Below are positions 5,901 to 48,423 of a stretch of 64,000 nt of DNA, piece by piece. The notes beneath the pieces are model-generated. The model was not told the origin of the DNA. It made no database searches and worked only from the letters and a program-made list of their open reading frames with translations. Positions within the stretch are counted from its first letter, which is position 1. The number at the start of each line of letters is the position of its first letter. The position numbers were made by a program, and so were the translations under genes. Origin of the DNA: a bacterium (lineage in GTDB: Bacteria > Patescibacteriota > CPR2 > UBA1875 > JAJYID01). The stretch spans positions 556,321 through 620,320 of the forward strand of contig JAJYLR010000001.1 of assembly GCA_021787535.1 (NCBI GenBank), written 5' to 3'.

Positions 5901-6700
5901 TCGGCCCATTTAAGGCGTTTGAGAGCTTTTTTTCTTTTTTGGCCGTGTGACACATTAACCTCATTTACCAATTCTTTCACAAGAGTATCAATATCAACTT
6001 TCTTTAAAAGCTCTAAGATGGCCTCAGCTCCTATCCCGGCTTTGAAAAGGTGGCCGTATTTCATGGAATATTCTCTGTATTTGGCTTCTGTTAAAGTAGA
6101 TCGCTCCTTTAATTCTTCAATTTCTTTTTTGGCCGCATTTCTGGAGTTTTCCAAGTCCTCGATTGCCTTTTGGGCAGCACGGGCATCTTTTTCTTCGCTT
6201 AAAACAGCTTTCTTTTTACTCTTTAGTTCATCATCCAAAGAGGCGATCATCTCTTTTTTTGCCTTTTCATTCACTTCTGTCACAGCGTAATTTGCAAAAT
6301 AAACTACTCTTTCCAGATCTTTTACACCGATTTCAAGCAAAAGCCCGACAGAGCTTGGGATACCTTTTAAAAACCAAATATGAGCGACAGGAACCGCGAG
6401 TTTAATATGGCCCATTCTTTCTCTTCGAACTAAGCTTCGAGTTACTTCAACCCCGCATTTATCGCAAATAATGCCTTTGTACCGGATTTTTTTATATTTT
6501 CCGCAGTAACATTCCCAGTCTTTAGTCGGACCGAAGATTTTTTCGCAGAAAAGGCCGTCTTTTTCCGGTTTCTGGGTTCGATAGTTAATCGTTTCCGGCT
6601 TTGTAACCTCACCGTGCGACCATTTTAAAATCTGTTCCGGCGACGCTACCGAAATTTTGACCGCATTAAATATTTGGCTTTGTTCGTCAATTTTTGGCAT
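2957..6700 (-). CDS. rpoC: DNA-directed RNA polymerase subunit beta'
   Basis: 1247 aa; zinc-binding CxxC...CxxC N-terminus, [12 protein letters not shown] catalytic motif and [19 protein letters not shown]. Confidence 0.97.
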
Positions 6701-6734
6701 CTTGAAATTCCTTAAAACTTATAAATTTAATTAA

Positions 6735-9700
6735 CTAATCACTCGTCACATCTATCTCAGGCAAATCCGCTCCTTTGCCCTCGATAATTTCCGCATCTTT
6801 CAATTCTTCAATATCTTCTTCATACTCAGTTTCTATAACTTCTTCGGCTGTCGCTTCTCTTTTGATCCGATCTTTAGCATCTTTCTGCAAGAGTTCAATA
6901 TTCAAACCTAAACCTTGCAGCTCTTTAGTTAAAACATTGAAAGACTCCGGTATACCCGGCTCTTTAATTTGTTCACCTTTAATAGTAGATTCATAAACCT
7001 TGCTTCTGCCGATTACATCATCACTCTTCACTGTTAACATTTCCTGCAAAGTATGGGCGGCCCCATAAGCTTCAAGTGCCCAGACTTCCATCTCTCCAAA
7101 TCTCTGGCCTCCGTTTTGGGCTTTTCCGCCGAGCGGCTGCTGCGTCACCATGGCATATGGGCCGATTGATCTGGCATGAACTTTATCCTCTACCAAATGA
7201 AGTAATTTTAAAATGTAGTTATAACCGACTGTTGTTTTCTGATTGAAGTATTCACCGGTCCTGCCGTCTCTCAGCCGGATCCGGCCGTCTTCCGGCAAAC
7301 CGGCTTTTGCAAGTTCTTCCTTGATATTTTCAATGTTTACGCCATTAAAAACAGGTGAAGCCACTTTATAGCCAAGCGCTTTAGCCGCCCATCCAAGATG
7401 AGTCTCTAAAACCTGCCCGATGTTAAGGCGGGAAACAACCCCTAGAGGATTTAAAATGACGTCAACCGGCGTGCCGTCTTCAAGATAAGGCAGGTCTTCA
7501 ACCGGCAGAATTCTGGCAATCACTCCTTTGTTTCCGTGGCGCCCGGCCATCTTATCCCCGACCGCTACCTTTCTCATTTGAGCAACGGTAACAAATACCT
7601 GCTTTATAACCCCGACCGGCAGCTCGTCGCCTTTATCCCTGGACTTAATTCTGACATCGATCACTTTGCCATTCAGCCGCGACGGCAGCCGAAGCGACGT
7701 GTCTTTCACATCACGGGCTTTTTCACCGAAAATAGCACGGAGCAGTCTTTCCTCAGCCGTTAGCTCGGTCTCGCCTTTTGCAGTAATCTTACCGACCAAA
7801 ATATCGCCCGACGTTACTTCGGCGCCGATTCTCACTATCCCATCCTCATCCAGATCGCGAAGAGCTTCTTCACCGACATTTGGAATATCGCGGGTAATCA
7901 CTTCGGGACCAAGTTTGGTATCACGAACATCTATAGGAAACTCTTCCAGGTGGATAGAAGTATATCTATCATCCGAAACGAGCCGTTCTGAAATAATAAT
8001 AGCATCTTCGTAGTTGCCTCCTTGCCAATTCATGTATGCCACAAGGACATTCTGGCCTAAAGCTATCTCTCCGTCTTCTGTGGCAGTCCCGTCTATTAAA
8101 AGATCGCCTTTTTTAATTTTCTGTTCTTTTTCAACAACAGTTTTTTGATTGATGCAGGTTCCCTGATTAGACATCGCAAATTTATCTAGCGCATAAATTT
8201 CTTCTTTGCCATCTGTGTATTTAACAGCTACGGAATCAGCCGTAGAAGCAATAACTTCTCCGCCTGTGCGAGCTCTCACAATTTGCCCGGACGATTCCGC
8301 TACATTCCCTTCAACGCCGGTTCCTACAACCGGTGACTCCGGTTTCACAAGAGAAACGGCCTGGCGCTGCATGTTTGCGCCCATCAGGGCTCTCTTTGCA
8401 TCATCATGTTCCAAAAATGGTATGAGAGCTGTTGAGATGCTGACAGATTGTTTAGTTGAGACGTCAAGATAATCTATTTCTTCCACTAGCGCTTCGTCTG
8501 CTTCCAGTTTTCTCCTGACCGGAAGAATTTTATCCTTGAAATATCCCTTTTCATCCAGAGGTGTGCTGGCTTCGGCAATAATAGAATTTTCTTCCTGAGC
8601 TGCATTTAAATAAACTATATCGTCTGATACTCTTGATTTGATTTTAATGATATCTTTTTTCACCTTTTGAAGCTGCGCAGCTATTTTTTGAGTGATAACA
8701 TCTCCGCTGTCCACAACCTTTCTCGCTCCGTCTTTGATGGTTTCAGCTGAAATTTCTCCAACCGGAGATTTGCCGTCATTTTTCACTTCTTTCAGTACTT
8801 TACGGTACGGCGCTTCTAAGAATCCATATTCATTGACTCTCGCATATGAAGCAAGAGCATTCACAAGACCAATATTCGGCCCTTCGGGAGTTTCTATCGG
8901 ACAAATGCGGCCGTAATGCGTACGGTGCACATCTCTAACCTCAAAACCTGCCCTTTCGCGGGTTAAACCGCCGGGACCGAGAGCTGATAATCTTCTTTTA
9001 TTTGAAAGTTCAGCGAGCGGATTTGTTTGATCCATAAATTGCGAAAGCTGAGATGAAGCAAAGAATTCTTTAATAGAAGCAACAACCGGTCTCACATTTA
9101 CCAGCTGGCTCGGGGTAACCGTTTCGGGGTCATTGGTACTCATCCGGTCTTTGATGATTCTCTCAGTCCTTAGCATCCCTACCCTGAATCTCTGTTGTAG
9201 TAGCTCGCCCATAGTTCTGAGCCGTCTGTTTGCTAAGTGATCAATGTCATCATGTTCTCCCTGTGCATTGTTCAGTTTAATAATTTCTTTAATAACTTCA
9301 ACCAGATCGCTCACCTGAAATACTCTGTGTTTTCTATCTTCCGGCAAATTCAAACCCAACCGTTGGTTTATCTTGAATCTGCCAACGCGCGAAAGATCAT
9401 ATTTTCTATGGTCAAAAAACATTCCGTCAATCAAAGATTTGGAATTATCGGCAGTTGCAAGATCACCGGGACGGATCTTTTTATAAGTTTCTATATAGGC
9501 CTCTTCTCTATTGGAGGAAGTGTCTTTTTCTAAAGTAGCATTTATATAGTCATGTTCCTTATCAGTATTAACTGAAGTGAAAAGCTTTTTTATATCTTCA
9601 TCCGCGGCATAACCAAAAGCTCGAAGCAAAGTTGTAACAGGAAATTTTCTCTTGCGGTCGATTTTGACATAGATCACATCCTGAGCCGATGTTTCCAGTT

Positions 9701-11445: not shown

Positions 11446-12066
11446 CTATCTCCTCGATTCGATTATTTTATCAACCATACCATAAGTTTTAGCTTCCCGA
11501 GCGCTCATAAAGTAGTCTCTTTCAACATCCTCGGCAACTTTTTTAACGCCTTGGCCCGTATGTTTGGCTAAAATATTATTCAGATTTTCTTTGAGTCTTC
11601 TTATTTCTTTAGTGTGGATTTCAATATCAGTCACTTGTCCGCCCATACCCATAATATGCGGCTGATGAATCATAATCTGAGAGTTTGGCAGTGAAAATCT
11701 TTTATTCTTTACTCCTGCACCCAGCAGTATAGCCGCGCCGCTCGCAGCAAGTCCAACACAAATCGTTGAAACATCGGGCTTTATATATTGCATGGTGTCA
11801 TAGATTGCCAGTGCTGAAGAGACTGCGCCTCCCGGCGAATTAATGTACAAATTAATATCTTTTTTAGGATCCTCACTTTCTAAAAATAGAAGCTGGGCAA
11901 TAATAATATTTGCCACGGTATCATCGATCGGAGTCCCCAGAAAAACTATGCGGTCTTTCAAAAGCCGCGAATAAATATCATAGGCCCTCTCACCCATGTG
12001 AGTTTTTTCAATGACTGTGGGAATAAGTATTTGGTTTTTAGGTGTCATATTCTTCCTTTCTGTCAT
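11446..12066 (-). CDS. clpP: ATP-dependent Clp protease proteolytic subunit
   Basis: [19 protein letters not shown]...INSPGG(S)...MIHQP... catalytic Ser/His context. The ATG for MTERKNM is preceded by AAGGAGG; the ORF track starts 6 nt earlier at GTG. Confidence 0.9.
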
Positions 12067-12147
12067 TCCCACCCTCCTTTGTCATTCCCGCGCAGGCGGG
12101 AATCCAGAATTTATTTGTATAGATTCCGGATCAAGTCCGGAATGACA
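12061..12147. repeat. Cluster of 3 palindromic repeat units (tgtcattcc / gtcattcccgcgcaggcgggaatcc / gattccggatcaagtccggaatgac)
   Basis: Imperfect hairpin units with GTCATTCC...GGAATGAC ends in the clpP-tig spacer, overlapping the clpP RBS and start. The last unit is the reverse complement of the copy at 56788-56812. Confidence 0.7.
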
Positions 12148-12153
12148 TATGAA

Positions 12154-13440
12154 TTACTTTACGCAATATTCAAATAATTTATCAATTGTCTTTTTTGATA
12201 TAATTCCGTTTTCTATCTGGTGTTCAGTTTCATGATCGGCAAGCTGTTTTTTGACCTCTGCTTTCCTGTCTTCGCCGACTGACGCGAGAATGGTGTCTTT
12301 TTCCGCCTGTATTTCTTTATCTGTCGCTTTTATCTTCTCAAGTTCGGCAATTTTTGACAAGATCAGTCCGTATTTTACCCTTTTTGAAGCATCGCCTTCC
12401 ATTTCATGTTCCAGCTCTTCCCTTGTCTTCTTTGTCATTTCCATATATCTATCCATAGTGATGCCGGATTGGGCCAGATTGGCCTCGGCGTCGTGCCACA
12501 TCTTATGGACTTCCTGATGGATAAGCGCTTTTGGCAGTTCTATTTTGACCATATCCGATATCTTTTTCATTATCTCTTCTTCCAAACGCCTTTTCTCTTC
12601 CATTTCCTTCGCTTCTTCCATGTTTTTCTTAACTCCGGCTTCAAGCTCAATAACGTTTTTGAAAATACCAAACTTTTTGGCAAAATCATCTGTAACTTCC
12701 GGCAGAACCTTCTCGGAGATCGACGCTATTTTTACTTTGAAAGTAACTTTTTCTCCCTGCAATCTTTTCTCATGATAATCTTTCGGGAAAGTCACGTCGA
12801 AAGTTTTCTCTTCGCCTTTTTTCATGCCGACCAGGTTTTCTTCAAAACCGGGTATAAACATGCCGGCGCCAATCGTAATCGGATACTTTTCAGCTTTCGT
12901 TCCTTCAACCGGCACACCGCCTTTCGTCCCTTCAAAGTTAATCTCAGTCCGATCATCTTTTTTAGCCGCTCTTTTGACCTCTTTAAATTCCGCATATCTT
13001 TCACGCAACTCTTGAATAGAATCCTTCATTTCTTTATCCGTTACTTTGGCCGCTACGCGCGAGACTTTGATTTTTTTATAATCCGGCATCGTAAAATCAG
13101 GCAAAATCTCCACTTCCGCTTCAAATGTCAGGCCGCCGGTCGGAGCAAACTTGGTAACTTTAATCTCCGGCCGGCTAACCGTAATCAGGTTTTCTTTTAT
13201 AATGGCATTGTAATAAGCTTCAGGCAGAACAGCATCCATGACTTCCGCATAGAACTTATCCTGTCCCACTTCTTTCTCAACAATAAACTGCGGGGCTTTT
13301 CCCGGCCTGAAACCGGCAATTTTCAAGTTTTTAGCCAGATTCTTATACACTTTTTCAATATGGGGCTTGAGCTCGGTCTCTGGCACATCAACTGTCAGCT
13401 TTACCTTTACTTTCGATAAATCTTCCCTTTTAGTCTGCAT
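12154..13440 (-). CDS. tig: Trigger factor
   Basis: 428 aa; N-terminal ribosome-binding GFRPGKAPQ motif and tig-clpP adjacency. Confidence 0.9.
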   Translation of the reverse strand: MQTKREDLSKVKVKLTVDVPETELKPHIEKVYKNLAKNLKIAGFRPGKAPQFIVEKEVGQDKFYAEVMDAVLPEAYYNAIIKENLITVSRPEIKVTKFAPTGGLTFEAEVEILPDFTMPDYKKIKVSRVAAKVTDKEMKDSIQELRERYAEFKEVKRAAKKDDRTEINFEGTKGGVPVEGTKAEKYPITIGAGMFIPGFEENLVGMKKGEEKTFDVTFPKDYHEKRLQGEKVTFKVKIASISEKVLPEVTDDFAKKFGIFKNVIELEAGVKKNMEEAKEMEEKRRLEEEIMKKISDMVKIELPKALIHQEVHKMWHDAEANLAQSGITMDRYMEMTKKTREELEHEMEGDASKRVKYGLILSKIAELEKIKATDKEIQAEKDTILASVGEDRKAEVKKQLADHETEHQIENGIISKKTIDKLFEYCVK

Positions 13441-17247: not shown

Positions 17248-17334
17248 TGGTGCCGCGGGGGAGACTCGAACTCCCAATCCGGTTAAGGAACTAGTTCCTA
17301 AGACTAGCGCGTATACCAATTCCGCCACCGCGGC
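17248..17334 (-). tRNA. tRNA-Leu (anticodon UAG), with encoded CCA
   Basis: Reverse complement GCCGCGG...CTAGT-CTTAGGA-ACTAG...GGGAGTTCGAGTCTCCC-CCGCGGC-A-CCA. It has a 7-bp acceptor stem, anticodon loop CU-UAG-GA, a long variable arm and a GTTCGAGTC T-loop. Confidence 0.85.
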
Positions 17335-27029: not shown

Positions 27030-29633
27030 ATGGCTAGAAGAAGATACAAAAGCAGAAGAACTGCTTTCCGAAACCCTAGAAGCAGAAAAACAGTTAAAAA
27101 TCCTTTCAGGCAATACGGCATCATTGCCGGCTCAAAGGAGTTTTTGCTAAATCTTTTTACTACAAAAGAAGGATGGAAAAAGATTGGAATTGGCGCTGGT
27201 ATTCTCGTGGGGCTTATTATACTTCTGGCCGCCTGGTACGCCAAAGACCTGCCCTCTCCGAGTAAAATTAACTCTAAAGTTTCCGCGCAATCGACTCAGA
27301 TATTTGATCGCAACGGCAAGATTCTCTATGAAGTGCATGGAAATGAAAATAGAATCTTAGTTGACTGGAACCAAATACCCAATAATGTCAAAAACGCTAC
27401 CATAGCCGTGGAAGATAAAAATTTTTACCACGAGCCGGGCTTTGACGTGAAAAGAATTGTCGGCGCCTTCATTTATGACATCATTCACAGCGATAAAAGC
27501 CAGGGCGGCAGTACTATTACACAGCAGTATGTGAAAAATGCTCTGCTTTCAAACGAGAAATCAATTTCCAGAAAGATTAAGGAAATGATGCTGTCAGTAA
27601 TGATTGAGCAGATGTATTCGAAAGATGATATTTTGAAAATGTATTTAAACGAAATCCCATACGGATCAAACGCATATGGCATACAGGTTGCCGCCAAAAC
27701 TTATTTCAATAAAGATGCGAAGGATCTGGATTTGGCTCAGTCGGCAACACTCGCAGCACTGCCCAATGCACCGACTTACTATTCCCCTTACGGCCAGCAC
27801 AAAGATGAGCTCATGAAGCGAAAAGATATGATTCTCGATCTTATGGCTGATCAAAAATATATTACCCAAGCTCAGGCAGATGCAGCCAAAAAAGAACAGC
27901 TTGTTTTCTCAAATAATCCGTATGGATCTATTACCGCTCCGCATTTCGTCATGTATGTCAAACAAAAGCTGATAGAAAAATACGGTGAAAATACTGTTAA
28001 CACCGGCGGACTGAAAGTTTACACCACTTTAGATCTGGATAAACAAAAATTAGCTGAAGAAGCTGTCGCCAAATATGCCGGCAAAAATGCAAAAAGCTAT
28101 AATGCCACTAATGAATCGCTTGTTGCCGAAGATCCCAAAACCGGACAAGTCTTAGCTATGGTTGGCAGCAAAGATTTCTTTGATACAAAAATCGACGGCA
28201 ATGTTAACGTTGCGATAAGCGGCCGCCAGCCGGGTTCGTCATTTAAACCATATGTTTATGCAACGCTCTTTAAGTCAGAAAACTGGGGTGCAGGCAGCAC
28301 TATTTATGATGTTAAGACTGACTTCGGCGGAGGATACATTCCCGCGAATTATGAAGGCAACTTTATGGGTCCGCAATCCATTCGATCTGCTCTCCAGGGA
28401 TCCAGAAATATCCCAGCAGTAAAAGCTATTTATATGGCAGGTGTTAATAATTCAATCGCTACTGCCAAAAGCATGGGTATTACGACTCTTGGTGATTCAT
28501 CCCAATATGGCCTCTCGCTTGTGTTGGGAGCGGGCAATGTCACACTCTTAGACCATACGAGCGCCTATGGCGTTTTTGCAGACGGAGGTGTCAAGCATGA
28601 TTCTACTGTGTTTCTAAAAATCGAAGATGCTAGCGGCAAAACATTAGAACAATATAAGGATTCTTCCGGCCAGAGAGTGTTGGACCCTCAGGTTGCATAC
28701 CTAATGAGTAATATTCTCTCCGATGACCCGGCCCGGGGATATGTTTTCGGACGAGGAGGTTATTTAACTTTAAATGGCCGTCAAGTTGCCGCAAAAACAG
28801 GCACAACCGATAACTTTAAGGATGGATGGACTATGGGTTATACGCCTTCTCTTGTCACTGGAGTTTGGGCGGGAAACAGTGACGGCACTCCGATGAAATG
28901 GGGCTCAGACGGATATTATGTAGCGGCGCCGATTTGGCACGAGTTTATGAGCAAAGCTCTCGCCGGTACAAGAGTTGAACAGTTCTCGAGGCCTTCAGGT
29001 ATTAAAACCGTAACTTTAGACGCCATCACCGGCAAAAAACCAACCTCAGCCACAAAAGAGGCCAGAACTGATATTTTCCCCAGCTGGTACCAAGTCCCTT
29101 CAAGCGATGCCGGCAGTACTTACAAAATTGATAAGACAAACGGACTGCTAGCCACAGATAGCTGCCCCGCCGACCTTGTACAGATCGTAACCAGAAGTAA
29201 TGCTTTAACGGCCGAGATTCCCAAAAGCGACCCGGCGTATCAGAGATGGTTTGCGCCTATCGCCGCTTGGGCCCAAGGACACGGATATTCGATAAGCGAT
29301 AACTCGCCGCCAACCCAAGTTTCACCAAATTGTAGCGCATCTCAGAATACTTCAAACAATTTAGAAATAAATATCACAGACCCGGCTGACGGCTCTAATG
29401 TCACAAGCCCTACCGTGATCGATATGTATGCCAGCGCTTCGGGCGGTATAGATTCTGTCACTGTTACTGTCGATAATCAGACCAGTTACTTGGCTTCTCA
29501 AATGGCAAATGGCAACGGTTATACGGCCAATATCCCGATCGCGAATGGTAATCACACAATCTTTGCCACATTAAAGGACAAAAACGGCAATACCAAACAA
29601 TCATCAACCATCACCGTCAATGTCCAGCATTAA
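27030..29633 (+). CDS. Bifunctional class A penicillin-binding protein (glycosyltransferase + transpeptidase) with C-terminal Ig-like extension
   Basis: GT51 motifs (EDKNFYHEPGFD, GGSTITQQ), transpeptidase SSFKP (SxxK), SRN, KTGTT. N-terminal basic tail and TM. About 150-aa S/T/N-rich beta-rich C-terminal domain. Confidence 0.9.
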   Translation: MARRRYKSRRTAFRNPRSRKTVKNPFRQYGIIAGSKEFLLNLFTTKEGWKKIGIGAGILVGLIILLAAWYAKDLPSPSKINSKVSAQSTQIFDRNGKILYEVHGNENRILVDWNQIPNNVKNATIAVEDKNFYHEPGFDVKRIVGAFIYDIIHSDKSQGGSTITQQYVKNALLSNEKSISRKIKEMMLSVMIEQMYSKDDILKMYLNEIPYGSNAYGIQVAAKTYFNKDAKDLDLAQSATLAALPNAPTYYSPYGQHKDELMKRKDMILDLMADQKYITQAQADAAKKEQLVFSNNPYGSITAPHFVMYVKQKLIEKYGENTVNTGGLKVYTTLDLDKQKLAEEAVAKYAGKNAKSYNATNESLVAEDPKTGQVLAMVGSKDFFDTKIDGNVNVAISGRQPGSSFKPYVYATLFKSENWGAGSTIYDVKTDFGGGYIPANYEGNFMGPQSIRSALQGSRNIPAVKAIYMAGVNNSIATAKSMGITTLGDSSQYGLSLVLGAGNVTLLDHTSAYGVFADGGVKHDSTVFLKIEDASGKTLEQYKDSSGQRVLDPQVAYLMSNILSDDPARGYVFGRGGYLTLNGRQVAAKTGTTDNFKDGWTMGYTPSLVTGVWAGNSDGTPMKWGSDGYYVAAPIWHEFMSKALAGTRVEQFSRPSGIKTVTLDAITGKKPTSATKEARTDIFPSWYQVPSSDAGSTYKIDKTNGLLATDSCPADLVQIVTRSNALTAEIPKSDPAYQRWFAPIAAWAQGHGYSISDNSPPTQVSPNCSASQNTSNNLEINITDPADGSNVTSPTVIDMYASASGGIDSVTVTVDNQTSYLASQMANGNGYTANIPIANGNHTIFATLKDKNGNTKQSSTITVNVQH

Positions 29634-29978
29634 AGTTGTTGTGATGTTTCTCTTTTTGCAATAAAATGTCTTTGTATAGTCGGGTAAGCCAGATTTCTTA
29701 AATTTTTAGTGGAGGGCTCCGCTTTCCCGGCTAGACTGAAAGATGACGATGCCATGGCTAGGACATTCCGAGCAGTTCGGCCTTGGCGAACAAAAAGAAG
29801 CCGAGGCATTTGCTGCTTACAGTTCAAGCCCTATCCGAGTCTTTCTGTTCGATGCAAAGGAGAGATCTTTTCTTTCGGAAGCTGCCCAAAAGTAGGCATC
29901 CGATATCTAGGGAAAGGTTGGAGTCGGGTGTGAAGTTCTTCTAGAAGGGCTTCTCATCCGGCTTCTTGTATTTATTAA

Positions 29979-30051
29979 AAGGACATTCCTTGTCATTGTA
30001 ACAACCGAAAAAGGACATTCCTTACTTTCGCATTTTGCAAGGTGTGTCCTT
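29979..30051. promoter_or_regulatory. Three spaced palindromic operator-like sites (AAGGAcatTCCTT x2, AAGGtgtgTCCTT)
   Basis: Sites at 29979-29991, 30011-30023 and 30039-30051, centre-to-centre 32 and 28 bp, in an ORF-free region between convergent genes. Confidence 0.35.
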
Positions 30052-30177
30052 TTCTTATTATAATTGCTTGATATGCTGGATTACTTCGCTTGTTATAATT
30101 GTTGAAGTTGTATTAAAGAAGGTCGAACCTCACCTCTAACGAGGTTCAATCTTCACAGAAAAAATTATTTTTCATCG

Positions 30178-30558
30178 CTACATTTCCCAGTATGGGATAA
30201 GATCATTCAGCCTAACTTTAAAAGGTCCATTTTCTTTCTTGAGAATCACATAAGGATTTCCAAACTGTCTTATCATTTCCCTACACTTTCCGCAAGGCGG
30301 TAAAATTTGTCCTTCTGAAGTCACGGCTACTATTGTTTCTATTTCTTGGTCGGCCTTTGAGTGCATTTTTCCTATTGCCGCATACTCAGCACACATCGAA
30401 CACGGACTTGAATGTATCTGTTCGATATTGACTCCTGTATAAATTTCGCCGTTAGTTGTCATTAAGGCAGACCCAACAGTAGAAAGATCGCTCTTTCTTT
30501 TTTTTATTAGCTTTTCTGCGATACTCATCAACTCTTTATCTTGATCATTAATTTCCAT
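30178..30558 (-). CDS. cdd: Cytidine deaminase
   Basis: 126 aa; CAEYAAI (zinc/catalytic Glu) and PCGKCRE motifs. Confidence 0.85.
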   Translation of the reverse strand: MEINDQDKELMSIAEKLIKKRKSDLSTVGSALMTTNGEIYTGVNIEQIHSSPCSMCAEYAAIGKMHSKADQEIETIVAVTSEGQILPPCGKCREMIRQFGNPYVILKKENGPFKVRLNDLIPYWEM

Positions 30559-48258: not shown

Positions 48259-48382
48259 AAGAGCCTCCTAAACTTTTAGCCCAATAGTTTAACTGTTTCC
48301 AGAATAGATGAAAGATTTTTAAAGCGCCTCTGGCAGAGTTCTAATTTTTTCAAGTTATTTTGTATGAAAGTTGTCGCAAGTA

Positions 48383-48423
48383 CCAAATGGAAAAACAGCA
48401 TTTCCAGCTGTTTTTCCATTTGG
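48383..48423. terminator. Perfect 17-bp stem hairpin (ccaaatggaaaaacagc-ATTTCCA-gctgtttttccatttgg)
   Basis: Directly downstream of the HdeD-like gene stop (48438). Confidence 0.5.

Follow-up and report, generated by a model that had tools for sequence, protein, structure and literature searches.

A stretch of 64,000 nucleotides from a genome of the Candidate Phyla Radiation (CPR)/Patescibacteria (contig JAJYLR010000001.1, positions 556,321 to 620,320; hereafter the window, numbered from its first nucleotide) carries on its plus strand, at 29675-29975, what is well supported as a stand-alone gene for a structured noncoding RNA (ncRNA) of ~300 nt that represents a previously undescribed family. 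The gene lies in the gap between ponA, which encodes the penicillin-binding protein PBP1A, and a convergent gene of the cytidine/dCMP-deaminase family (cdd). Ordinary in its architecture, it resembles known kinds of bacterial small RNA (sRNA) gene while belonging to no family tested, and is new within the reach of our searches. We consider it likely that the gap as a whole holds this new RNA gene, a separate hairpin module downstream of it, and a third hairpin that ends a minus-strand operon.

An initial annotation of the window, made from its letters without database searches, had described the gap as poor in open reading frames (ORFs), with a GC-rich structured segment and three palindromes, and had proposed a small regulated transcript, either an ncRNA or a small-protein gene under a dimeric repressor. 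The gap between convergent PBP1A and cdd is real, and its GC-richer block is confirmed (GC 0.48-0.51 over 29700-29950, compared with 0.33-0.41 on both flanks). ORFs within it are indeed short and overlapping, though there are five of at least 30 aa (34-74 aa) rather than the two that had been counted. Of the two kinds of transcript proposed, it is the small, structured, independently transcribed ncRNA that our analysis supports, with a predicted promoter and terminator.

Homologues downstream of ponA

Searches with BLASTN, nhmmer and a covariance model recovered homologues of the RNA directly after ponA in 16 loci. These comprise the window (L001 being a contig of the same sequence), L002-L007, L082-L088, L091-L095, L097 and L098; several of the identifiers are duplicate contigs of one organism, and ~15 distinct sequences stand behind the count. 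The family was sampled next to ponA only. Among the RNA-bearing loci, ponA protein identity ranges between 91% and 58%, and the RNA is missing after ponA in L096, L090 and L009 (56-60% identity). As far as sampled, the family is limited to one CPR/Patescibacteria clade of WS5/Howlettbacteria relatives. All PBP1A relatives are from metagenome-assembled CPR/Patescibacteria genomes, and among those with names are 'candidate division WS5' (70% identity) and Howlettbacteria (58%). Relative to the window, the RNA diverges in step with ponA DNA, the identities being 82.5 and 82.9% respectively in L083, the closest relative (91% PBP1A identity), and 64-70 and 70-76% in the next group.

Differences in length among the homologues are found at helix tips, with two insertions in L005, one in the first stem-loop (SL1) of L004 and L085, and an extra branch in L002 and L003; variable-length tip insertions of this kind are what structured RNAs typically show, and no reading frame could accommodate them. 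The two insertions in L005 (6636-7028), each of ~45 nt, are at branch tips of the second stem-loop (SL2), and the ~50-nt SL1-tip insertion in L085 (5628-5979) holds three ATTCGTAA repeats. Pattern scans found no match for the RNA or the downstream hairpin in viral contigs and one match, L082, in metagenome contigs, the single match being due to the strictness of the pattern; BLAST searches of plasmid and phage sequences gave no match. In one UBA7522 assembly a run of 249 N directly follows ponA (L010 6547-6795, equivalent to L089). Deliberate masking was considered as an explanation and rejected: the independent assembly L090 has ~137 nt of ordinary sequence, without the RNA, and the N run is thus a scaffold gap of the wrong length.

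Fold and covariation

The structured segment recognized by the initial annotation is borne out by the plus strand of 29670-29975, which folds at -117 kcal/mol (z = -4.84 relative to dinucleotide shuffles; z = -1.21 for the minus strand). For 13 sequences, RNAalifold gives 68 pairs, 43 of them with compensatory changes. A plain MAFFT alignment (A3), which covers SL1, the tip of SL2, SL3 and SL4 with 59 pairs, has 93.8% of its cells paired and 42 pairs compensatory; its covariation score of 0.594 drops to at most 0.206 when pairing partners are slid by 1-3 columns, and is reached in 0 of 500 shuffles. The SL2 rod was assessed in a second alignment (A5), for which a covariance model (R1) was built from seven simple members and all 14 were then aligned to it. 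Here 91.6% of cells are paired, 25 of 34 pairs are compensatory, and the score is 0.558 as opposed to at most 0.153 with slid partners, fitting to R1 having inflated the SL2 pairing somewhat. Taken together, the two alignments contain 67 compensatory pairs out of 93. Frequent G-U pairs identify the plus strand as the RNA strand.

The predicted RNA is a series of four domains, SL1, the long rod SL2, SL3, and the terminator SL4. SL1 (29677-29733) is a 5' hairpin of 17 pairs, 10 of which are compensatory, with 90% of cells paired; UAGUCGGG... pairs with a nearly invariant 3' strand CU(C/U)UCCCGGCUAG, conserved as CUC(C/U)CGG(C/U)UA(G/A), while the apical part varies in length. SL2 (29734-29850) is a rod of ~115 nt with conserved internal loops GAUGCCAUGGCUAGGAC / GUUCAAGCCCUAUC, including GCCA(U/A)GGCU, and a nearly invariant apical loop at 29788-29799, GAACAAAAAGAA, that reads GA..AAAA(A)GAA across members. 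SL3 (29864-29919) consists of two stacked helices and an asymmetric internal loop (16 pairs, 12 compensatory, 97-99% of cells paired), and its apical loop holds an invariant CUGCCCAAA..AGGC, conserved as CUGCC(C/U)AAA..AGGC. The terminator SL4 (29920-29975; 18 pairs, 12 compensatory) is a hairpin at 29920-29965 followed by CUUGUAUUUAUU, with a U tract that runs to 29975. SL1 and SL2 abut without a spacer, as do SL3 and SL4, so that each pair may stack coaxially.

The half formed by SL1 and SL2 is joined to the half formed by SL3 and SL4 by a linker of ~13 nt, GAUGCAAAGGAGA (29851-29863). Within it CAAAGGAG (29855-29862), which is Shine-Dalgarno-like and outside every supported helix, does not vary among the 13 sequences of A3 and is replaced by CUAAGGAG in the more distant L097. 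This linker and the two A-rich loops of SL2 and SL3 are what is conserved outside helices. Neither a start codon nor a conserved frame follows the Shine-Dalgarno-like stretch, and an AUG just upstream of it is lost in L082, L087, L091 and L094.

Inspection of the conserved loops as K-turn, tetraloop-receptor or T-loop motifs gave no convincing match. The apical tetraloop of SL4 (29941-29944) is self-complementary, being CUAG in close members and CGCG, within UUCGCGAA, in L087, L091, L094 and L097; it could mediate loop-loop dimerisation, or could simply complete a perfect DNA palindrome. A pairing quoted in the initial annotation, ggctccgctttccc with gggaaaggttggagtc (29715-29728 with 29911-29926), can form in the window sequence but lies outside the conserved fold; the segments concerned are divided among three covariation-supported helices, in which they contribute to the 3' strands of SL1 and SL3 and to the 5' strand of SL4.

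Predicted promoter and terminator

The RNA gene is located immediately after the ponA stop codon, and in L097 the RNA begins at the stop codon itself. A sigma-70-like promoter is predicted on the plus strand at 29639-29667 (TTGTGA, a 17-nt spacer and TAAAAT; 9/12 match), ending ~10 nt before the first helix. Fourteen upstream regions were read: a -10-like hexamer precedes the 5' helix by 5-13 nt in 13 of them and by 28 nt in L003, and 11 of the 14 also have a -35-like box at a spacing of 17-18 nt; the intervening spacer sequence is otherwise unconserved. These counts were read by eye, and a promoter scan flags only the window and L005. Other examples are TTGTCA-17-AATAAT in L003 and L005, and TGATATAAT in L087.

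At the 3' end the terminal hairpin is followed by CUUGU(A/U)UUU, with terminator-like calls at the same place in L084 and L005, and convergent genes end at the terminator of the RNA in several relatives. The two features expected of a trans-acting sRNA gene, a promoter of its own and a Rho-independent terminator, are thus both present as predictions. No terminator separates the ponA stop codon from the RNA, whose own terminator therefore probably ends ponA transcripts as well.

The invariant linker and a possible mechanism

Two structured halves, an invariant 8-nt single strand, and a terminator common to the upstream mRNA make up the architecture of base-pairing sRNAs of the 3'-untranslated-region (3'-UTR) type. 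In enterobacterial sRNAs of the DapZ type (also CpxQ and SroC) the gene is found at the 3' end of a protein-coding unit, with a terminator common to the mRNA. Our RNA is like these in both respects, and also in that its promoter is at or just after the stop codon and a conserved single strand lies between stem-loops. However, it is 3-4 times as long and much more highly structured, its internal and apical loops being conserved; its conserved single strand is G/A-rich and Shine-Dalgarno-like; and there is neither sequence homology nor a known dependence on Hfq. A second likeness, a functional analogy and not homology, is to DsrA, RprA and ArcZ, the anti-antisense activators of rpoS, in that a seed similar to the strand of the ribosome-binding site could displace an inhibitory CU-rich arm and free a Shine-Dalgarno sequence. 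The invariant AAGGAG of the linker looks like such a seed, although a search of the 64-kb window revealed no leader whose arm would be complementary to it.

We tentatively propose that the RNA acts in trans by presenting AAGGAG to a CU-rich partner. Transcribed on its own, it would offer the exposed linker either to an anti-Shine-Dalgarno arm that masks the ribosome-binding site of a target mRNA, leading to anti-antisense activation, or alternatively to the 3' tail of 16S rRNA, with the invariant A-rich loops of SL2 and SL3 as possible sites of protein docking or tertiary contact. A more far-reaching version, to which we assign little probability, is that the RNA forms the core of a lineage-specific ribonucleoprotein on the translation apparatus, an mRNA mimic that would dock on the 30S subunit via AAGGAG and use SL2 and SL3 as contact modules for protein or rRNA.

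Several observations weigh against this picture. In the 64-kb window, targets bearing the linker complement CUCCUUUG occur at chance level only, and by a crude count only 13 of the 41 long ORFs show a Shine-Dalgarno-like motif before the first ATG. Several single-sequence folds place part of the linker in pairs, with inconsistent partners, and UCUCC, invariant in the SL1 3' strand, is another possible partner, in a pairing that is beyond the reach of covariation because both sides never vary. The promoter, the terminator, and both the 5' and 3' ends of the RNA are all predicted, and the range and copy number of the family rest on ponA loci. As alternative partners for the linker we considered the 3' tail (CUUGU), UCUCC of the SL1 3' strand, and the SL3 5' strand, and none of these pairings proved consistent or covarying.

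Alternative readings of the RNA

The ORFs of 50-74 aa on the plus strand leave open, in principle, that the region encodes a small protein, and one public annotation does call a 79-aa ORF across the RNA ('hypothetical protein C4544_06965' of candidate division WS5, L084 5671-5910). We regard this reading as extremely improbable, and C4544_06965 as almost certainly a false gene call: a search with the 79-aa product, also meant to reveal non-syntenic copies of the RNA, returned only itself from among 5.8 billion proteins; the frame and extent of the ORFs differ between relatives; and within the helices the indel lengths are not divisible by three and the substitutions are compensatory. The small-protein option of the initial annotation is accordingly abandoned. 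Size (~300 nt) and strong conservation in a small genome would also fit a highly diverged housekeeping RNA missed by Rfam in CPR, that is, ribonuclease P (RNase P), signal recognition particle (SRP), transfer-messenger (tmRNA) or 6S RNA, which we nevertheless consider very unlikely. An Rfam scan, the check that had been suggested with the initial annotation, identified no known family for the RNA, with nothing matching it at the gathering threshold in a scan of the whole window, and with chance-level microRNA/snoRNA matches only at E<=10 (801 nt around the RNA plus five homologous loci) and at E<=1 (whole window). Since RNase P RNAs of CPR are known to fall below Rfam thresholds (PMC8172020), the RNase P possibility was examined explicitly. 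The new RNA is near in size to reduced forms of type A RNase P RNA, and in close members the SL1 and SL4 stems AGUCGGG/CCCGGCU(U) resemble the strands of helix P4. Yet each of these strands has a local, covarying partner within SL1 or SL4, and there is no long-range P4 pseudoknot; the SL4 stem is of unrelated sequence in L087, L091, L094 and L097, making a long-range helix between SL1-5' and SL4-3' impossible, and the likeness is lost in distant members. RF00010/RF00011 gave no match at E<=10, the sole RNase P-clade match being a chance one of 7.9 bits, of RNaseP_nuc on the terminator, although diverged CPR forms can score very low. The CR-I motif (GAGGAAAGUCC, before the P4 5' strand) is likewise missing, with no GGAAAGUCC at up to one mismatch in any of 15 members, and ACAGAA is absent from the same 15. 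For tmRNA, ARAGORN was negative on the window, and there is no T-arm-like GGUUCGAAUCC in any of the 15 members, no CCA-type 3' end and no Rfam match. No SRP-clade match was obtained at E<=10, and the apical loops are A-rich and 11-12 nt long (GAACAAAAAGAA; GCCCAAAAGUA) rather than the GNAR tetraloop that caps SRP helix 8. Four serial stem-loops with unpaired ends are also unlike the end-paired rod with a central bubble of 6S RNA, for which there was no match at E<=10. The initial annotation, which had found no match to RNase P, tmRNA or SRP, is upheld in that the RNA is none of these.

A reading that is improbable, though less so than a housekeeping RNA, has the element act purely in cis, as a structured ponA 3' UTR that stabilises or terminates the mRNA, with no transcript of its own and no function in trans. 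It is favoured by the constant position of the RNA directly after ponA, with no terminator between and a terminator common to both, and by L097, where the RNA starts at the stop codon; adjacency to ponA is in itself weak evidence, however, as recG-tyrS-ponA-...-murB is syntenic throughout the clade. Against it stand the -10-like boxes (mostly with a -35) before the first helix in 14/14 upstream regions whose spacer is otherwise unconserved, and a conservation of loops and linker that far exceeds what a stabilising hairpin would need. A riboswitch or cis-acting leader for a downstream gene was rejected, the next gene being convergent in the window and in 8 of 9 other genomes read; the exception is L083, with a plus-strand ORF ~230 nt past the RNA. 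The main alternative to base pairing as a mechanism, unlikely but ahead of the cis reading, is that the RNA serves as a protein sponge or scaffold through its GGA/AAGGAG and A-rich motifs, in the manner of CsrB/RsmZ and CsrA, or presents an (AAN)4 loop to Hfq. The invariant, Shine-Dalgarno-like AAGGAG is the kind of site that CsrA recognises, and AAC-AAA-AAG-AAG, at the apex of SL2, forms a perfect (A-A-N)4 repeat. But the 5-10 GGA per molecule barely exceed the ~5 expected by chance, and only one is both invariant and unpaired, whereas RNAs of the CsrB type display many (at least 8), in hairpin loops or single strands; we therefore do not class the RNA with the CsrB/RsmZ type.

The palindromic hairpin and a third hairpin

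The three palindromes noted by the initial annotation are at the sites it gave, AAGGACATTCCTT occurring exactly at 29979-29991 and 30011-30023, and AAGGTGTGTCCTT at 30039-30051; their spacing, which had been called even, is only roughly so (32 and 28 bp from centre to centre). The second and third are the arms of one hairpin of ~15 bp (AAAAGGACAUUCCUUAC, loop, GCAAGGUGUGUCCUUUU; 30009-30053, plus strand), and the first duplicates the 5' arm, the entire element extending over 29977-30053 with U runs on both sides. Being 3' of SL4, and so beyond the terminator of the RNA, the palindromes cannot gate its promoter, and the idea that they are the operator of the RNA transcript fails. Nor are they tied to the RNA, since among five RNA loci inspected downstream only L002 also has them. 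The proposed search for further sites that might define a regulon found nothing comparable elsewhere in the 64-kb window, and ~100 related loci gave no copies beyond those described here.

A 46-nt unit of the element is 97.8% identical to L002 7172-7217, in a genome where the RNA is 64% and ponA DNA 76% identical, and a 95% copy is present in L003 (3875-3835) at a different locus, between tyrS and ponA; the unit is missing from L083, the 91% relative. With z values of -4.9 to -6.2 the hairpin is highly stable, and the same orientation is the more stable in all three genomes that have the unit. In the window it folds at -26 kcal/mol and is followed by UUUUCUUAUUAU, and in L002 at -23.7 kcal/mol (z = -5.95), followed by UUUUUUAUUAUU, with A and U runs flanking it in both as in a bidirectional terminator. 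As a matter of sequence, a GC-containing hairpin with an immediate U run, the element has the form of an intrinsic terminator. L003 carries a compensatory change from A-U to C-G that keeps the long hairpin and weakens the 13-mer palindrome. Judged from these features, the palindromes are most likely a separate hairpin module that would work in its RNA form, either as a terminator for both directions or as a back-up one, and that has possibly moved or been exchanged between genomes. Its presence in three genomes means that 'mobile' rests on three data points, which counts against that part of the interpretation. In its long near-perfect hairpin with an A run and a T run between convergent units the element is like both bidirectional terminators and the repetitive extragenic palindromes and mosaic elements known as REP/BIME, as it is in having near-identical copies at non-homologous loci of related genomes. 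It differs from them in that it is present as one copy per 64 kb and in three genomes, its loop is conserved and its arms are internally palindromic, and no transposase-related ends or target duplications are recognisable at it. A 10-mer of the arms, AGGACATTCC (29980-29989 and 30012-30021), also occurs within SL2 at 29760-29769 in this genome only, relatives having AGGACUAUCC or AGGACUUUAC at that site; this may be chance or a trace of the origin of the arms.

Promoter-like boxes overlap and follow the hairpin on the plus strand at 30035-30099, TTGCAA, an 18-nt spacer and TATAAT at 30035-30064 (10/12 match), then TGTTATAAT (30091-30099), with a repeat, D2, noted here. The tataat pointed out by the initial annotation is present, with its position corrected to 30094-30099. 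Such boxes are the basis for a different view of the 13-bp palindromes, as operators of a dimeric repressor controlling a promoter at 30035-30099 that would drive a short transcript or a cdd antisense RNA. We hold this to be unlikely, if somewhat less so than the other alternatives considered here. It keeps some weight because the third arm overlaps the -35-like TTGCAA of TTGCAA-18-TATAAT; each arm is moreover a 5-3-5 palindrome in itself, the arms are spaced at 28-32 bp, and the L003 copy lies within the divergent tyrS-ponA promoter region. On the other hand, no conserved transcript, ORF or terminator follows the boxes, which are only partly conserved in L002, where the TATAAT is not kept; the intervening loop is no less conserved than the arms; the change in L003 favours the long hairpin over the 13-mer; the hairpin is strand-asymmetric in all three genomes; and the sites lack further copies in the loci searched.

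The stem-loop that had been recorded beyond these boxes exists, its extent being corrected to 30118-30154. This third hairpin of the gap (hairpin 2) is intrinsic-terminator-like on the minus strand, where it follows the 3' end of cdd and the genes that lie upstream of cdd on that strand. L002 lacks cdd and keeps this hairpin, both of its stem arms having changed in ways that preserve pairing. The orientation of the signal and its retention in the cdd-less L002 indicate that hairpin 2 is most likely the terminator of the minus-strand operon that ends in cdd.

Flanking genes

The ponA ORF is at 27030-29633 on the plus strand, and its relatives carry PF00912 and PF00905. Its start is ambiguous (27030-27144), the longest ORF encoding 867 aa and an identical public protein having 829 aa; the true start may be ~114 nt downstream, which would widen the tyrS-ponA intergenic region. 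On the opposite side of the gap, cdd (30178-30558, minus strand; PF00383) encodes 126 aa and converges on ponA. The order recG-tyrS(-) | ponA(+) | ... | (-) 3-methyladenine glycosylase-murB-PIN/TRAM is syntenic across the clade, with cdd an extra gene in the genome of the window, between the terminator hairpin and the glycosylase gene. No other genome whose downstream genes were read has cdd at the same place, and it looks like a lineage-specific insertion or loss. In L083 the interval from the RNA to the glycosylase gene contains, in place of cdd and the palindrome element, a plus-strand ORF of 210 aa (6182-6814) without a Pfam match. The sole RNA gene recognised by Rfam or ARAGORN in the 64 kb is a tRNA-Leu (17248-17334, minus strand); sub-threshold Rfam matches to rli52 (48340-48423) and FtrB (12011-12171) are chance-like.

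Significance

In general appearance the new RNA is reminiscent of the raiA motif, OLE, and ROOL/GOLLD, orphan structured RNAs that have emerged from surveys of long GC-rich intergenic regions (PMC5737381, PMC11109978). Like these it came to light as an intergenic block that is richer in GC and free of ORFs, and it has in common with them a fold of several helices that covaries strongly, invariant unpaired nucleotides, and a narrow range. It differs in matching none of their Rfam models, in being smaller than OLE, ROOL and GOLLD, and in its CPR hosts. In the literature that we searched, no structured or lineage-specific ncRNA is described for CPR/Patescibacteria.

CPR genomes are tiny, and a 300-nt RNA under strong structural selection is therefore unlikely to be dispensable. 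CPR cells also lack several otherwise universal ribosomal proteins. If the RNA were indeed the core of a ribonucleoprotein on the translation apparatus, it would amount to a new RNA-based means to store, silence or license ribosomes in ultra-small CPR cells, and its position after ponA would couple a ribosome-acting RNA to growth of the cell envelope. The near-identical 46-nt hairpin at different loci of diverged genomes hints, for its part, at small mobile terminator-like modules in CPR. Recognition of the RNA family would improve annotation, as at least one public record has a bogus 'hypothetical protein' over the RNA. Above all, a new family with clean covariation, clear boundaries and an invariant Shine-Dalgarno-like strand offers a testable entry to RNA regulation in uncultivated, host-dependent bacteria.

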